64,000 nt of DNA from Gammaproteobacteria bacterium (GCA_033852135.1 JAWSVB010000022.1:101936-165935), one strand, 5' to 3'; numbered from the stretch's first letter, positions 55,550 through 63,210 are shown. The notes: generated by a model not told the origin, from the sequence alone. Program-made: numbers and translations.

Positions 55550-56191
55550 ATGATTAAAGTTCTATTGGTAGATGATCATCAGCTGGTCAGATCAGGGATT
55601 AATAGAATTCTTCAAGATGCTGAAGGTATTAGCGTAATTGGAGAAGCTAGTAGTGGCGAAGAAGCAATTACTATTACCAGGGAGATTGGCCCTGATGTAG
55701 TGTTGATGGATGTTAGTATGCCAGGTATAGGTGGTATTGAAGCAACCAGAAAATTACTACGAGTTAATGAGAAAATAAAAATTATTGCATTGACCGTTTA
55801 TGCAGGTGAACCATACCCAACTAGTCTTTTAGAAGCAGGAGCATCAGGTTACTTGACCAAAGGGTGTGACGTTTCTGAAATTGTTAATGCAATTAATACC
55901 GTGATGCGTGGAGAGCGCTACCTTGGTAAAGATGTTGCGCAGCAAATGGCTCTTTCCGCACTTCCTGGTGGTAAAAAGAATCCTTTTGATAAGCTGTCTC
56001 AGCGTGAAGTACAAGTTATGCTGATGATAACTCAAGGAAAGAAGCTGCAGGATATCTCTGATAAGCTGTGCTTAAGTCCAAAAACAGTTAGCACCTATCG
56101 TTACAGGATTTATGAAAAGCTTGATGTAGATAATGATGTTGAGCTTACCCATTTGGCTATTCGTCATGGAATGGTCGATAACATTCAGTAA
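55550..56191 (+). CDS. uvrY: GacA/UvrY-type response regulator (receiver + LuxR HTH)
   Basis: 'IKVLLVDDHQLVRSG...VVLMDVSMPG'. C-terminal HTH 'LSQREVQVMLMITQGKKLQDISDKLCLSPKTVSTYRYRIYEKL'. Position immediately upstream of uvrC. Confidence 0.9.
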   Translation: MIKVLLVDDHQLVRSGINRILQDAEGISVIGEASSGEEAITITREIGPDVVLMDVSMPGIGGIEATRKLLRVNEKIKIIALTVYAGEPYPTSLLEAGASGYLTKGCDVSEIVNAINTVMRGERYLGKDVAQQMALSALPGGKKNPFDKLSQREVQVMLMITQGKKLQDISDKLCLSPKTVSTYRYRIYEKLDVDNDVELTHLAIRHGMVDNIQ

Positions 56192-58262: not shown

Positions 58263-58861
58263 TGCAGTGGAATATACCAAATACACTGACAGTTATTAGG
58301 ATAGTATTAATACCGTTTCTGATGGTGAGTTTTTTTGCTCTTCCACATCCCTGGTCTAATTGGGTCAGCTTTGGGATTTTTTGGTTTGCTTCGGTTACGG
58401 ATTGGTTTGATGGGTATTTAGCGCGTAAATTGAATCAGACATCTCCATTTGGAGCATTTCTTGATCCAGTTGCTGATAAGTTAATGGTTGCTGTAGCATT
58501 GATCTGTGTAGTGATTCAGTCACCTAGTGTATATTTTGCTATTCCAGCAGCGATTATTATCGGTAGAGAGATCACCATATCAGCTTTAAGAGAGTGGATG
58601 GCTGGTTTGGGAATGAGCAATAAGGTTGCAGTTTCTATCCTGGGTAAAATTAAAACCTCTGTGCAGATGCTTTCAATAATGTTTCTTCTTTTTAACTACC
58701 AGCTATTTTCTCTTACTCAGGAACAGGTCTATATAGTAGGTACTGTACTATTATATATCGCAGCAGTGTTAACTATTGTATCAATGCTCTCATATTTGAG
58801 AGCAGCTTTTGCAATCGATTTTACAAAAACTGAAACTGATGGCGATATATCAGGTAAATGA
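58262..58861 (+). CDS. pgsA: CDP-diacylglycerol--glycerol-3-phosphate 3-phosphatidyltransferase
   Basis: 'MQWNIPNTLTVIRIVLIPF' is parallel to E. coli 'MQFNIPTLLTLFRVILIPF'. CDP-alcohol motif 'DWFDGYLAR...GAFLDPVADK'. ATG overlaps the uvrC stop. Confidence 0.92.
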   Translation: MQWNIPNTLTVIRIVLIPFLMVSFFALPHPWSNWVSFGIFWFASVTDWFDGYLARKLNQTSPFGAFLDPVADKLMVAVALICVVIQSPSVYFAIPAAIIIGREITISALREWMAGLGMSNKVAVSILGKIKTSVQMLSIMFLLFNYQLFSLTQEQVYIVGTVLLYIAAVLTIVSMLSYLRAAFAIDFTKTETDGDISGK

Positions 58862-58996
58862 AAGATTCTGAGTAAACAAACAGTTGTAAAACTTTTGTAA
58901 CAATAGGGTTGCTTCAAAGGAAAAAATTATAAAATAATGGTGTTGAAAAGCTTGACACAAAGGCGATTCTGACTAAAATACACCACATGAATTGAC

Positions 58997-59072
<76 letters not shown>

Positions 59073-59153
59073 ATATTCAAAGGCCCTGGTAAATCCAGGG
59101 TTTTTTAGTATAGAAGTTTATTTAAGGTTTATACTGAAACTGCACCAACTCAA

Positions 59154-59227
59154 GGCTAGGTAGCAAAGTGGTTATGCAGCGGCCTGCAAAGCCGTAGACG
59201 CCGGTTCGATTCCGGCTCTAGCCTCCA
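59154..59227 (+). tRNA. tRNA-Cys (anticodon GCA)
   Basis: GGCTAGGTAGCAAAGTGG...CCTGCAAAG...GGTTCGATTCCGGCTCTAGCCTCCA. Confidence 0.9.
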
Positions 59228-59232
59228 AATTC

Positions 59233-59320
59233 GGGGATGTGGTGGAATTGGTAGACACGAGAGACTTAAAATCTCTTGGCTATTGCGGCCGTGCCGGTTC
59301 GATTCCGGCCATCCCCACCA
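59233..59320 (+). tRNA. tRNA-Leu (anticodon TAA), class II with long variable arm
   Basis: GGGGATGTGGTGGAATTGGTAGACAC...CTTAAAAT...GGTTCGATTCCGGCCATCCCCACCA. Confidence 0.9.
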
Positions 59321-59348
59321 TTAGTAAAGCTTTTCTCTACAGAGAAAA

Positions 59349-59388
59349 GACATAAAAAAACCAGCTGATTTGCTGGTTTTTTTATGTC
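59349..59388. terminator. Strong bidirectional intrinsic terminator (17-bp perfect inverted repeat)
   Basis: GACATAAAAAAACCAGC-tgattt-GCTGGTTTTTTTATGTC, between the tRNA operon end and the converging ligase gene. Confidence 0.9.
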
Positions 59389-59473
59389 TGAATTTTATGG
59401 GTAAGCTGCGTGAGTTTTCCAGTCTCGTGGGTTTTCCATAGATGGTTGTTAGAGAAAAAAGGTACTTACCGAT

Positions 59474-61033
59474 TTAAGATTTTTTATGCTCTTTTATTAC
59501 CGCATTGCGGTCTAGTTTATTTGCACCTGTCTTGGGAATCTCTTCTACAAAGAAAATATCTCGAGGTAGTTTGAATTTAGCTAGATGCTTAGAGCAGAAT
59601 TGTAGTAATTCATCTTTATTGGTGTTGGAGCCTTTCTTTATTACGACATTGGCGATAGGTACTTGTCCCCATTTAGTATCATCTATACCGATGCAAACGG
59701 CCTCATCAACCTCTTTATGTTTTAAAAGGGCATCTTCAATCTCTTCTGGTGAGATATTTTCTCCACCACTGATAAACATGTTATCTGAGCGACCGATTAT
59801 TGAAACAAAGCCATCATCTGAAGCTATTGCTAAATCACCAGAAATAATCCACCCATCCTTTGTAGTGATGGTTGAAGTTCTCTCGTCATCATTTAGGTAG
59901 CCATCAAAATTATGTAAGCTACGCAGGTATAGAATTCCAGCTTTTCCAGGCGGTACTTCTTCGCCAGTTTCAGACATGATTTTATAATCACAGTGAAACA
60001 TTGGCAGGCCGATAGTATCTGATTTATCCTTTACAAGGTCCATGCGATCTTCAGCTGGGATAAATATGAAATTTGATGGTCCAGCTTCAGTGAGGCCATA
60101 AGATTGGGCTGTTTGAATACCCTTATCCCAAAATGGCTGCATAATTTCAGGTTGGCATTTTGATCCACCGGTAAATACAATATCAACTGATTCAAATGAG
60201 CATGAATCGAAATCTGGATGATTGCTCAACATAAGAGCCATTGGTGTTGCAAGGGGAAGAATTTTTACCTTCTCTTGGTTAATTAGTTCGATAACCTCTT
60301 TGGGGTCAAAGCTTCTAATTAAAATTGCATAACCACCAAAGTGAATATGAGGGACAAAGATGTTCCAGCCACCAATATGAAAGAATGGAAGTGTAATAAT
60401 TTCAGATGTTGAACAAATTCTGCTTGATGAACTTGCAGCAAGTTCAACAGAGTTCCATATCACTTGCTGGTGAGAAACTTTGCATATTTTAGGGGTAGAG
60501 GTTGTGCCGCCAGTGTGAATAAGTAAAAAGGTATCACTTATTTTTAATGGGGTGTTGGCTTCATTGTCTGAATGTATTAAAACCTTGGTATAGAATTCAT
60601 TGGTGCTGTCATCAGTCAGTTTTATTACTGTAGTAACTGATTTAGGAATGTTTAAGGAGTTAAAAAGATCTTGGAAAAAGTCTTCAAAGAATATAGCTTT
60701 AGGCTGTATTCTATCAATCAGATCATTAATTTCGGTTGCTGCTAAGCGGTAGCTAATTGGTGATAAAACTGCGCCAGTTTTACCAGCAGCAAAGAAAAGA
60801 TCTACAATTTCAATACGATTTCGTGAAATAACACAAACTTTATCCCCTTTATTTATATTGTTTTCAAGGAGAAAGTTGCTTGTCTTATTTGCTCTTGAGT
60901 TTAGCTCTTTAAAAGTGAATTTTTGATTGCAGCCTTTATCAAAGATACCAATAGTATCTGGTGAAATAGAGGCTCTTTTACCTATCCAGTTGCCGACCCA
61001 TTGCATTTCCATCTGCTCAGAACTGCAGAACAT
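59474..61033 (-). CDS. AMP-dependent synthetase/ligase (acyl-CoA synthetase-like adenylate-forming enzyme)
   Basis: AMP-binding motif 'LIHTGGTTSTPK', 'YGLTEAGP', 'GDLAIASDDGFVSIIGRSDNMFISGGENI'; 519 aa. Alternative in-frame starts lie 21-27 nt downstream. Confidence 0.8.
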   Translation of the reverse strand: MFCSSEQMEMQWVGNWIGKRASISPDTIGIFDKGCNQKFTFKELNSRANKTSNFLLENNINKGDKVCVISRNRIEIVDLFFAAGKTGAVLSPISYRLAATEINDLIDRIQPKAIFFEDFFQDLFNSLNIPKSVTTVIKLTDDSTNEFYTKVLIHSDNEANTPLKISDTFLLIHTGGTTSTPKICKVSHQQVIWNSVELAASSSSRICSTSEIITLPFFHIGGWNIFVPHIHFGGYAILIRSFDPKEVIELINQEKVKILPLATPMALMLSNHPDFDSCSFESVDIVFTGGSKCQPEIMQPFWDKGIQTAQSYGLTEAGPSNFIFIPAEDRMDLVKDKSDTIGLPMFHCDYKIMSETGEEVPPGKAGILYLRSLHNFDGYLNDDERTSTITTKDGWIISGDLAIASDDGFVSIIGRSDNMFISGGENISPEEIEDALLKHKEVDEAVCIGIDDTKWGQVPIANVVIKKGSNTNKDELLQFCSKHLAKFKLPRDIFFVEEIPKTGANKLDRNAVIKEHKKS

Positions 61034-61220
61034 ATTAAATATTTCCCGTAAACCATTCCTAGCTTAAGGTTATTGCATAAAATGCCTATAAGCAAGGCTA
61101 TGGGCTTATAAATTTGCTGAAATTTACTAATCACCATTTAGCATGAAAAATATAGCTGGATTATTGAGGGTATTGGCTAAATAGCTTTGGATTAGAACTA
61201 AGGATATTTGTTACTTAATT

Positions 61221-61250
61221 AAAAAACCCCCTCCTTAATAAGGAGGGGGT
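61221..61250 (-). terminator. Minus-strand intrinsic terminator in the leader of the ligase gene (attenuator, or 3' end of an sRNA)
   Basis: The minus strand reads CCCCCTCCTTATTAAGGAGGGGG followed by TTTTTT. A second GC hairpin (GGCGACG...CGTCGCC, 61259-61287) lies immediately upstream on the same strand. Confidence 0.6.
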
Positions 61251-61711
61251 AAAGTAAGGGGCGACGTAGCTAGGATTGTCGTCGCCACTTGGAGGAGCTG
61301 GTAAATTCATTATTGCAGTTACGCCAAATGCTGCAAAGCAACATACTAGTCGCATCAACCTTCTCAGTCAAGTTGTTTTTGGGTATGAAAATTTATTAAA
61401 TCGTAAGAGTCGCTAAGCGGTTGTGACTATACGCTATAAATTATGAGTAAAAGGGTAAAGCCCATAAGTATAGGTCGTTCATTAAATTGTCCATAGGCAC
61501 ATTATACATTTAAAATTAGTTTGATCAAAATATTAATAGAAATTAATAGTGTAGGTGCAGGTTGAGATACAGCTTAGTAGGACGGAATAAATTAGCTATG
61601 AATTATTAGCCGGAGTATAAAATCGAATTAATTACGATTGAAATATCTGCATAAAGATATATGATCACAATTAGTGTTAGTTTACCCACCTTTTTATACC
61701 TGTCGGGAGAT

Positions 61712-62044
61712 ATGATGAAGTTTATTTTTCTGGTTATTGCTTCAATAGTTTTAATTGTGCTTGGGATGAGTTTTTACATGCTTAATAATGAAGCTGTTAA
61801 TGTTGATTTATATTTTTGGAAACCAGAGGAGCCCACACAGTTGGCGTTAGTTATGTTAATAACACTTGCTGTTGGTGTCTTAATTGGTTTTTTTGCTTCA
61901 TTGAGTATGGTCTTTACAAATAAGAGCGAAATTAGAAGATTGAAAAAAATTCAAAAATCTAATGAAGAAGAACTAACTAATTTAAGAAATATGCCATTAA
62001 AAGATAGTGGTATTAGTTCAGATGTAATAGAAGCGGGCAGCTGA
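61712..62044 (+). CDS. lapA: Lipopolysaccharide assembly protein A (YciS/DUF1049)
   Basis: Two TM helices 'FIFLVIASIVLIVLGMSFYML' and 'LALVMLITLAVGVLIGFFA'. Directly precedes lapB and pyrF as in E. coli. The listed ORF is extended upstream to 61661. Confidence 0.8.
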   Translation: MMKFIFLVIASIVLIVLGMSFYMLNNEAVNVDLYFWKPEEPTQLALVMLITLAVGVLIGFFASLSMVFTNKSEIRRLKKIQKSNEEELTNLRNMPLKDSGISSDVIEAGS

Positions 62045-62055
62045 GTGAATATCTA

Positions 62056-63210
62056 ATGGGGATTGCCGAATTAATACTAGCTCCACTATTGCCGCTTGCG
62101 GCATTAACTGGCTGGTATTGCGCATCGAAATTTTATAAAAATAAAGGAAAAAGTGGCGGTGTCGGTAAATCTGCAAATAATTATTTTCGTGGTTTAAATT
62201 ATTTATTACAGGATCAGCCTGATAAGGCAATTGAAGTACTGGTTAAGCTGGTTGAGGTTGATAGCGATACTGTTGAAACACATTTAGCGTTGGGGAGTTT
62301 GTTTCGTCAGAGGGGGGAGGTTGATAGAGCTATTCGAATCCATCAAAATATTATTGCTCGCCCAACTCTATCTAAAGAGCAGAATTCAAATGCAGTTTTT
62401 GAGCTGGCAACTGATTTCTTAAGGGCTGGTTTTTTTGATAGAGCGGAGCAACTGTACTTGCAGTTGGTTGGGGATAAATCTTTCAATAAGCAAGCGCTTA
62501 ATCAACTTATATATATTTATCAGCAAGGTAAAGAGTGGGAAAAAGCTGTAGATTATAGTATTAAGCTCTTAAAATCTGGTGAGCAAAATATAGCTTTAAA
62601 TCTATCTAATTATTTATGCGAGCAAGCAGATGAGTTTGAGAAAAATGGTGAGTTACGTTTGGCTCGCAGTGCATTGCTAAAATCACTTGAATATGATTCA
62701 AAGTCGATTCGAGCTGAAGTGAGATTGGCCTCTATTGCATTTGGATTAGGAAAAGTTAAAGAGGGTATTAAAAGATTAGATGTTGCACTTACTAAGGACC
62801 GGGAATTTATCCCTCTTTATATTCAAGTAATCGAAAAATTTAGTTTTAGTCAGATTTCTAATGAAATAGCGCAAGGATTTGTGGATAGGTGTCTTGATAT
62901 AGATCCAACTAATTCATCTGCTGCAATTAAAAAAGCTAATTTATTGGCTTTATCAGGGTGTTACGTTGAAGCAAAAGACTTTTTGACAGATTTTGTTGAA
63001 CAGGCCCCGTCCATTAGCGTAATACTTGAGTTGCTAAGATGTGATGATTCTAATGGGGCAGAAGTGGATATTGTGTCTCTTCTTGATAGAAGTGTTTCTA
63101 GTGAGAGCAGTTTTTCTTGTGTTAAGTGTGGTTACCAAACTTCTCATATAGAGTGGAAATGTCCAAGTTGTCAAAATTGGAGTTGTATTAAACCGAGCAA
63201 TAATATTTAA
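62056..63210 (+). CDS. lapB: Lipopolysaccharide assembly protein B (YciM; TPR repeats + C-terminal rubredoxin-like zinc site)
   Basis: 'VETHLALGSLFRQRGEVDRAIRIHQNI' is near-identical to E. coli 'VEAHLTLGNLFRSRGEVDRAIRIHQTL'. C-terminus 'CVKCGYQ...WKCPSCQNW'. Confidence 0.92.
   Translation: MGIAELILAPLLPLAALTGWYCASKFYKNKGKSGGVGKSANNYFRGLNYLLQDQPDKAIEVLVKLVEVDSDTVETHLALGSLFRQRGEVDRAIRIHQNIIARPTLSKEQNSNAVFELATDFLRAGFFDRAEQLYLQLVGDKSFNKQALNQLIYIYQQGKEWEKAVDYSIKLLKSGEQNIALNLSNYLCEQADEFEKNGELRLARSALLKSLEYDSKSIRAEVRLASIAFGLGKVKEGIKRLDVALTKDREFIPLYIQVIEKFSFSQISNEIAQGFVDRCLDIDPTNSSAAIKKANLLALSGCYVEAKDFLTDFVEQAPSISVILELLRCDDSNGAEVDIVSLLDRSVSSESSFSCVKCGYQTSHIEWKCPSCQNWSCIKPSNNI

Follow-up and report, generated by a model that had tools for sequence, protein, structure and literature searches.

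A minus-strand element between lapA and an acyl-CoA-ligase-like gene is a probable small-RNA gene of an uncultured gammaproteobacterial lineage

What ends at a strong intrinsic terminator that stands just upstream of a gene, on that gene's own strand? The question is raised by a 64,000-nucleotide (nt) stretch of DNA from a Gammaproteobacteria bacterium (GCA_033852135.1 JAWSVB010000022.1:101936-165935; the window), in which a 672-nt spacer (61034-61705) separates an acyl-CoA-ligase-like gene on the minus strand (59474-61033, start ATG at 61033) from lapA on the plus strand. The ligase-like product matches the Pfam families AMP-binding and AMP-binding_C and falls under all NCBIfam equivalog cut-offs; lapA (probable start 61706), lapB and pyrF run divergently from it. 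An initial annotation, made from this sequence, had placed a terminator and a second hairpin in the spacer and had offered two explanations, namely a riboswitch or attenuator in the ligase leader, or a small RNA (sRNA) of ~100-250 nt transcribed from 61300-61500. Our analysis favours the latter: terminator and hairpin very probably form the 3' end of an independent minus-strand sRNA gene, and the element most likely represents a previously undescribed, clade-restricted and unusually conserved sRNA family of a familiar functional type.

The two hairpins are readily recovered. On the minus strand, the DNA arms ACCCCCTCCTT and AAGGAGGGGGT enclose ATT (61250-61226; ACCCCCUCCUU-AUU-AAGGAGGGGGU in the RNA) and a run of six T residues ends at 61221, so that the transcribed strand carries a GC-rich stem-loop and then a U-run, as in an intrinsic terminator. 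Seven of the stem pairs are G-C, and the hairpin alone has a folding free energy (dG) of -20.3 kcal/mol. In a terminator scan of 58800-62100, which returned seven terminator-like sites versus 1.9 +/- 1.4 in shuffles, this site, placed at 61221-61250 by the initial annotation, was the strongest. It ends 188 nt from the ligase ATG, close to the ~190 nt first given. The second hairpin, GGCGACG-13 nt-CGTCGCC, lies at 61286-61260, at most one base off the 61259-61287 originally noted; its 7 bp can be extended by AAG/CUU to 10 pairs, and its 27-nt core occurs once in the window even when three mismatches are allowed, none being expected by chance. Adjoining it on the 5' side is a CU-rich segment, CUCCUCCAAGU, with a predicted unpaired probability of 0.72-0.98 in the short predicted isoform (see below), and the U-rich linker ACUUU that joins hairpin to terminator is likewise predicted to be unpaired (0.82-0.98). 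Minus-strand RNAs of 116 and 281 nt are predicted to fold more stably than shuffled sequences (z = -3.7 and -4.4, respectively).

Exact-protein look-ups of ligase and LapB homologues yielded ten distinct orthologous loci, all from metagenome-assembled genomes (MAGs) or metagenome contigs and all with the order pyrF-lapB-lapA <- spacer -> ligase. A scan of GTDB species representatives with LapB returned one relative, the MAG 'Gammaproteobacteria bacterium BHT14_PHBH_gam1' (locus L001), with a LapB 83% identical. Overall, LapB identities are 98, 86, 83, 77 and 71% within the window subclade and 55-57% for a distant subclade, and the isolation of the lineage is apparent from its closest outside LapB relatives, all at most 40% identical. 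At fourfold-degenerate sites of the ligase gene, identity falls from 65% (L001) and 47% (L003) to only 28-43% in the distant subclade, which means that neutral sites are saturated there. Despite this saturation, a block of ~80 nt comprising CUCCUCCAAGU, the hairpin, the U-rich linker and the terminator (61297-61218) is 86-99% conserved, and the hairpin core does not differ among 16 fetched loci. Variation among orthologues within this 3' module amounts to a 1-nt C indel, one stem-closing pair (L021), one linker base (L023) and the register of the terminator, which retains a dG of -17.3 to -20.4 kcal/mol and A/U plus U5-6 in all ten. The module is conserved far beyond the surrounding genes, and such conservation usually signals a central regulatory role.

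Part of the variation is in keeping with RNA structure. The terminator of L021 (CCCCCCUUU/AAAGGGGGG) differs from that of the window (CCCCCUCCUU/AAGGAGGGGG) by two double changes and one wobble change that keep a 9-10-bp stem, although this compensatory change comes from a single variant lineage. In the distant subclade, an extra hairpin just 5' of CUCCUCC has the same position but a different sequence in each species (arms AGACAUU/AAUGUCU, AGGCAUC/GAUGCUU, AGGCAG/CUGCCU and GGUAU/AUGCC). The compensatory changes and the differing hairpin at the same site indicate selection acting on the element at the RNA level.

Is the locus then a gene for RNA or for protein? The initial annotation had stated that no minus-strand open reading frame (ORF) lies upstream of the terminator. 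Taken literally this fails, since ORFs of 47 codons (61358-61215) and 33 codons (61371-61270) exist mechanically, but it stands in that neither is conserved in frame. Translation of one of them, as a small protein or from a type I toxin mRNA, would make the conservation a coding constraint, and a GAGAAGG motif just 5' of one ORF and the hydrophobic N-terminus MRLVCCFAAF of the 47-codon ORF are in its favour. Against it, the linker between the conserved blocks measures 30, 31, 58, 59, 60 or 108 nt, which covers all three residues modulo 3; a 1-nt indel (CCCC versus CCC) falls inside the invariant block; L001 fuses the N-terminus of one ORF to the C-terminus of the other; and a coding ORF would include the hairpin of its own terminator. 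Because indels break every reading frame and the 47-residue product has no Pfam match, the locus is non-coding; as in an sRNA gene, no reading frame is conserved. The frame analysis effectively refutes the coding or type I toxin reading, to which we assign next to no probability.

The strand has to be settled by evidence other than folding, as the plus strand folds equally well (z about -4.25) and folding energy alone therefore cannot assign it. A plus-strand element, such as a CsrA-binding RNA rich in GGA or a segment of a long leader of lapA, would have in its favour the GGA motifs on that strand, including an AGGA in the hairpin loop. On that strand, however, no conserved promoter lies upstream, conservation being lowest at 61100-61220; neither hairpin is followed by a U-run, and an A-run precedes the hairpin instead; and the conserved lapA promoter (61638-61665) lies downstream of the hairpins. 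Moreover, a U-G pair (in H2) and a G-U pair (in the species-specific hairpin of L009) become A-C mismatches. With both promoter-like sites described below and the U-run on the minus strand, the poorest conservation where a plus-strand promoter would have to lie, and the wobble pairs mismatched on the plus strand, the element is on the minus strand. The lack of a plus-strand promoter and U-run and the mismatched wobble pairs also led us to reject a plus-strand CsrA sponge, and a plus-strand element of any kind is extremely improbable.

Promoter prediction, which the initial annotation had proposed as a check, identified two conserved sigma-70-like sites, P1 and P2, upstream of the hairpins on the minus strand; the scanner reported both of them in the window and, independently, in L006 (Table 1). 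In P1 the hexamers are invariant and the spacer sequence varies, with a length of 17 nt in L021 (conservation 0.78-0.85). In P2 the -35 box does not vary, the -10 box conforms only to TA(G/T)NAT (TAGTAT, TAGGAT, TAGCAT and TATCAT), and the spacer, the first 10 nt of which are unconserved, is always 17 nt long. Genuine promoters, and not RNA helices, would be expected to combine invariant hexamers with variable spacers. Directly 5' of the P1 -35 box lies the AT-rich block ATTAATTTCTATTAATATT, for which we infer an UP-like function from its position. Transcripts running to 61221 are predicted to measure ~274 nt (P1) and ~115 nt (P2) in the window, and 301-351 and 144-193 nt, respectively, in the distant subclade. 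Conserved promoter-like sites and a near-invariant 3' domain thus favour the sRNA of ~100-250 nt ending at the terminator that the initial annotation had put forward as an alternative.

The 5' stretch specific to the P1 isoform is for the most part weakly conserved. Within this 5' extension, (A/G)TGGAC at the 5' end and ATAGTCAC (61430-61423) are conserved, and a candidate helix, ATAGTCA/TGACTAT, is almost invariant, so that covariation is uninformative for it. All ten orthologues have (A/G)TGG(A/G)C at the 5' end predicted for the long isoform (61489-61494). A mini-ORF beginning at (A/G)TGGAC was considered and rejected: it has four codons (MD[T/A][F/I]-stop) in the distant subclade versus 10-17 in the window subclade, its substitutions are all non-synonymous, and it is probably not translated. 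Over the predicted P2 start lies a 15-bp near-palindrome with the core TGTTGC-TTT-GCAGCA (61342-61328; TAT at its centre in most orthologues), which might act as a DNA operator or fold as a hairpin in the long RNA isoform. Three copies of a GC(T/A)(A/T)(T/A)GCAGCAAT-like motif stand in tandem in locus L023 (1464-1814), and UGCAGC repeats occur in two to three copies in L006 (3700-3760) and in L009; the palindrome and UGCAGC motif may represent an operator or a repeated RNA motif. No GacA/UvrY box (TGTAAG-N6-CTTACA) was seen by eye upstream of P1 and P2.

Table 1. Features of the spacer between lapA and the ligase-like gene, in the order of minus-strand transcription (promoters, starts and pairing states are predictions)
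Feature	Position	Strand	Conservation	Remarks
lapA promoter	61677-61638		0.81-0.88	
Trough, lapA promoter to P1	61637-61558		0.38-0.52	
AT-rich block ATTAATTTCTATTAATATT, directly 5' of P1 -35 box	61529-61547	-		UP-element-like; nearly invariant in 10/10 orthologues
P1 region	61537-61498		0.78-0.85	
P1 promoter-like site, TTGATC-16 nt-TATAAT	61501-61528	-		10/12 consensus matches; predicted start ~61494 (A of ATGGAC)
5' extension, long (P1) isoform only	61337-61494	-	0.55-0.70	
P2 promoter-like site, TTGACT-17 nt-TAGTAT	61343-61371	-		predicted start ~61335 (61336-61334)
P2 -10 box and hairpin	61357-61338		0.89	
Hairpin/palindrome ATGTTGC-TTT-GCAGCAT	61328-61344	-		overlaps P2 start and -10 box; C-G replaces U-G in L001 and L021, otherwise invariant
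Variable linker	61298-61327	-		30-31 nt in window subclade; 58-108 nt in distant subclade, with extra hairpin
3' module and terminator	61297-61218		0.86-0.99	
CU-rich segment CUCCUCCAAGU, anti-Shine-Dalgarno-like, candidate seed	61287-61297	-		invariant in 10/10 orthologues; predicted single-stranded
Hairpin AAG-U-GGCGACG / loop ACAAUCCUAGCUA / CGUCGCC-C-CUU	61256-61290	-		core 61286-61260; loop predicted 0.95 unpaired
U-rich linker ACUUU, hairpin to terminator	61251-61255	-		kept in all orthologues; AUUUU in L023
Intrinsic terminator	61221-61250	-		11-bp stem, 3-nt loop, U6; stem kept in L021 by compensatory change
Trough, terminator to ligase block	61217-61118		0.34-0.56	
Unconserved spacer, not part of RNA	61098-61220	-	0.34-0.56	much shorter in distant subclade (large alignment gaps)
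Ligase block	61097-61058		0.78-0.82	
Ligase promoter-like block, TTGCTT-17 nt-TAACCT	61067-61095	-	0.78-0.82	TTGATA-17-TAATCT in distant subclade

How such an RNA might act is suggested by its exposed segments. Transcription would begin at two tandem sigma-70-type promoters, P1 (~61494) and P2 (~61335), and both RNAs would stop at 61221. The functional part would be the ~80-nt 3' module, with single-stranded CUCCUCCAAGU, a 10-bp hairpin exposing the 13-nt loop ACAAUCCUAGCUA, the U-rich linker and the terminator. Its exposed CU-rich segments would pair in trans with GGAG-type ribosome-binding sites (RBSs) of target mRNAs, CUCCUCC being complementary to the Shine-Dalgarno sequence GGAGGAG, and this pairing would block the initiation of translation; a chaperone such as Hfq would probably sit on the 3' U-tail and the U-rich linker, a possible Hfq-type site. 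CU-rich, RBS-complementary unpaired stretches have precedent in short sRNAs made of hairpins and a terminator (PMC5688073, PMC4615179). We put forward RBS pairing as the most likely, if tentative, mechanism, with a chance just short of even; the full explanation, a stand-alone sRNA with tandem promoters that pairs with ribosome-binding sites, seems to us a slightly better than even proposition.

Several points weigh against that explanation. The promoters are predicted, and so are the starts and lengths of the transcripts. Formal covariation is nil, the score of the three conserved helices having been reached by 246 of 500 shuffles; since the helices of the 3' module are sequence-invariant, the test is uninformative, and support for the structure comes from the terminator of L021 and the species-specific hairpin. 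A target search among 45 window genes gave a best energy of -13.9 kcal/mol, compared with a mean of -14.1 for shuffled seeds, and exact complementary 9-10-mers were only generic Shine-Dalgarno-like matches. The invariance of ~60 nt, stems included, exceeds what a simple seed model explains and may reflect a protein partner or overlapping constraints. Finally, the ligase gene lies downstream on the same strand in all ten loci that carry the RNA, which would suit coupling by read-through, and the -10 box in front of it is weak (TAACCT/TAATCT).

The last two points speak for a cis-acting ligase leader, in which transcription from P1 and P2 would enter the ligase gene only when the terminator is overridden, be it by a riboswitch, by anti-termination through a protein or an sRNA, or by a signal for processive read-through, and the 3' block would serve as the sensor; the direct abutment of the conserved element on the terminator, like that of an expression platform, also agrees with such a leader. 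Yet all Rfam cis-regulatory families score below half of their gathering scores, the best riboswitch or leader matches being PyrR (19-23 bits versus 54) and the Phe leader (20.6 versus 55), both driven by the terminator. No competing anti-terminator is found, as the 5' arm of the terminator stays free of pairing when the transcript is cut before the 3' arm (mean P(paired) 0.02-0.23, in each of the ten orthologues), and completing the transcript gains exactly the dG of the terminator. An unconserved, length-variable spacer of 45-125 nt separates the terminator from the ligase block, a conserved -35/-10-like sequence of fixed 17-nt spacing that falls under the promoter-scan threshold; we infer that it acts as a promoter. 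The order uvrC-pgsA-tRNA-ligase-RNA-lapAB-pyrF is frozen in the clade, and because the whole region is syntenically frozen the co-occurrence of RNA and ligase carries little weight. The only ligase relative found elsewhere, a 53%-identical homologue with metH upstream and in another context, is without the RNA. Taken together, the lack of a family match and of an anti-terminator, the variable spacer and the ligase gene's own promoter-like block favour a separate gene. The riboswitch or attenuator first suggested is thus disfavoured, and we consider a ligase leader unlikely.

The extent of the invariance, which spans stems, loop and linker and reaches beyond a short seed, bears on a different alternative, that the RNA is a structural one constrained by a protein partner, such as a translational regulator or an RNA chaperone, or acts as a sponge for another RNA, for example a GGA-rich Csr/Rsm-type RNA complementary to its UCC motifs. 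The window encodes a response regulator (55550-56191, plus strand) of the UvrY/SirA/GacA family (NF007018, 313.7 bits versus a cut-off of 280), directly 5' of uvrC, pgsA and the tRNA genes, and its presence implies that the source organism probably has a Gac/Csr-type circuit; GGA occurs four or five times in the complement of the 3' module, once within the hairpin loop. Against this alternative, no known protein-binding RNA family matches, and the transcribed strand lacks GGA motifs outside the terminator and is thus not a CsrA sponge. Highly conserved base-pairing sRNAs are known, so the invariance is not decisive. We regard a protein-binding or sponge RNA as distinctly unlikely. A bolder reading starts from the resemblance of CUCCUCC, the loop sequence UCCU and the terminator arm CCCCUCCUUA each to the 3' end of 16S rRNA: a multi-site anti-Shine-Dalgarno RNA might compete with that 3' end or with CsrA for GGA and GGAG sites genome-wide, or titrate GGA-rich Csr/Rsm RNAs, with two differently regulated promoters and partial read-through coupling to the ligase. 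This is a long shot; if true, it would make the RNA a lineage-defining global translational regulator in a deep, uncultured branch of the Gammaproteobacteria.

The proposed stand-alone sRNA gene appears, within the collections searched, to be restricted so far to one little-sampled, isolated lineage of marine Gammaproteobacteria. Searches with a covariance model of the element (R1) gave no further copy in the window or the fetched loci, and no match in outgroup loci or in those that carry the 53% ligase homologue. JGI metagenome contigs were scanned with two patterns, one with the hairpin stem left free and one with the loop left free, and IMG/VR with one pattern; each of these scans gave 0 matches; blastn against plasmid and phage collections and a full-text literature search for the sequence returned no match. 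In the nearest outgroup (LapB 37% identical; L029/L030, 3498-7182), the genes cmk-rpsA-ihfB, which are usual there, lie upstream of lapA; in the window lineage (59474-63210), uvrC-pgsA-tRNAs-ligase and the RNA take their place beside lapAB, a lineage-specific rearrangement. Three Logan unitigs from different species (L002, L007 and L008; positions 3-29) all end 2 nt before the GGCGACG hairpin, probably where the invariant block common to co-occurring species breaks the assembly graph; in practice, the RNA gene will often fall at contig ends.

The surrounding genes provide further context. The window contains the uvrY/gacA-like gene, uvrC, pgsA and genes for tRNA-Gly, tRNA-Cys and tRNA-Leu, in the gacA-uvrC-pgsA order known from other Gammaproteobacteria. 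A palindromic hairpin of 18 perfectly paired bp lies at 59348-59389, between an A-run and a T-run; it resembles an intrinsic terminator that works in both directions and would be shared by the plus-strand tRNA-Gly/Cys/Leu cluster and the 3' end of the minus-strand ligase gene. On the other side of the spacer, a strongly conserved promoter-like site, TTGAAA-16-TATGAT (61638-61665, plus strand), precedes lapA, and the ATG of the longest lapA ORF (61661) falls within it; the real start is probably at ~61706, to judge from an ATG that stands behind a conserved Shine-Dalgarno sequence, GGAG (in the window, GGGAG). For annotation, the implication is that the seemingly 'empty' 670-nt spacer between lapA and the ligase gene probably holds a gene of its own, and a covariance model is supplied with which to find it. 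If expressed, the RNA would represent a new sRNA family and serve as a marker of a deep and uncultured lineage of Gammaproteobacteria from marine-bioplastic biofilms.

It remains to place the element among known RNAs. The Rfam scan that the initial annotation had called for found no family at gathering score in the minus-strand region: across the whole window only tRNAs pass, all other matches at E <= 10 in the region and in L006 are sub-threshold and driven by the terminator, and ARAGORN detected no tRNA or tmRNA in the region. A CsrA sponge of the CsrB/RsmY/RsmZ type was rejected, since the GGA motifs lie on the strand without promoter or terminator and the transcribed strand reads UCC.

Three described families come close in design. 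RF02278 comprises the double-hairpin or toxic sRNAs ncS03, ncS05, ncS27 and ncS62 of Burkholderia cenocepacia, the CU-rich unpaired stretches of which are complementary to ribosome-binding sites; overexpression of ncS27 attenuated growth and its silencing increased it (PMC5688073). The score against this family is 21.8 bits for the window and 19.0 for L006, versus a gathering score of 50, and the family consensus starts with UGUCUCCUCCA, which L006 has at the equivalent place. The likeness is in design only, consisting of two hairpins with CU-rich stretches predicted to be unpaired (CUCCUCCAAGU 5' of hairpin 1, the UCCU loop, and the terminator as the second hairpin). In contrast to these betaproteobacterial RNAs, the present one is gammaproteobacterial, has a longer module (~80 nt, 13-nt loop), predicted tandem promoters and a 5' extension, and was seen as a single copy per locus in the 64-kb window and the short flanks of relatives, Burkholderia genomes carrying 3-5 copies. 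Anti-hemB (RF02837, ncS04) gave the best Rfam E-values, 0.019 for the window and 0.0097 for L006, at 21.2 and 21.1 bits versus a gathering score of 49.5. Both have the UCUCCUCC(C) motif and, behind it, a hairpin and then an intrinsic terminator, but the first hairpin of the model, with the CU motif in its loop, does not form here, and neither the window nor the fetched loci showed a hemB gene. The alphaproteobacterial cuckoo/CcsR (RSs0680) RNAs carry unpaired anti-Shine-Dalgarno-like CU-rich motifs proposed to occlude ribosome-binding sites, and are defined by two to four adjacent hairpins, each with CCUCCUCCC in the loop, and by highly variable stems (PMC4615179). Here, by contrast, CUCCUCC lies outside the hairpin, the loop is ACAAUCCUAGCUA and the stems are invariant, which places the element outside that definition.

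The closest general comparison is with trans-acting sRNA genes of the Hfq type, an established class in which a U-rich linker, terminator and U-tail are the usual enterobacterial layout for binding the chaperone. The intergenic position, predicted sigma-70-like promoters, conserved and predicted single-stranded seed, U-rich stretch by the terminator and U-tail all agree with this class, whereas the lack of a sequence family and the near-invariance of 60-80 nt across very divergent genomes, unusually long for such RNAs, set the element apart. It thus resembles RF02278, anti-hemB and the cuckoo RNAs in design and is a member of none. No concept is overturned, since the kind of element is familiar; the RNA would instead extend to the Gammaproteobacteria an exposed CU-rich, anti-RBS design documented so far mainly in Betaproteobacteria, Alphaproteobacteria and Firmicutes.

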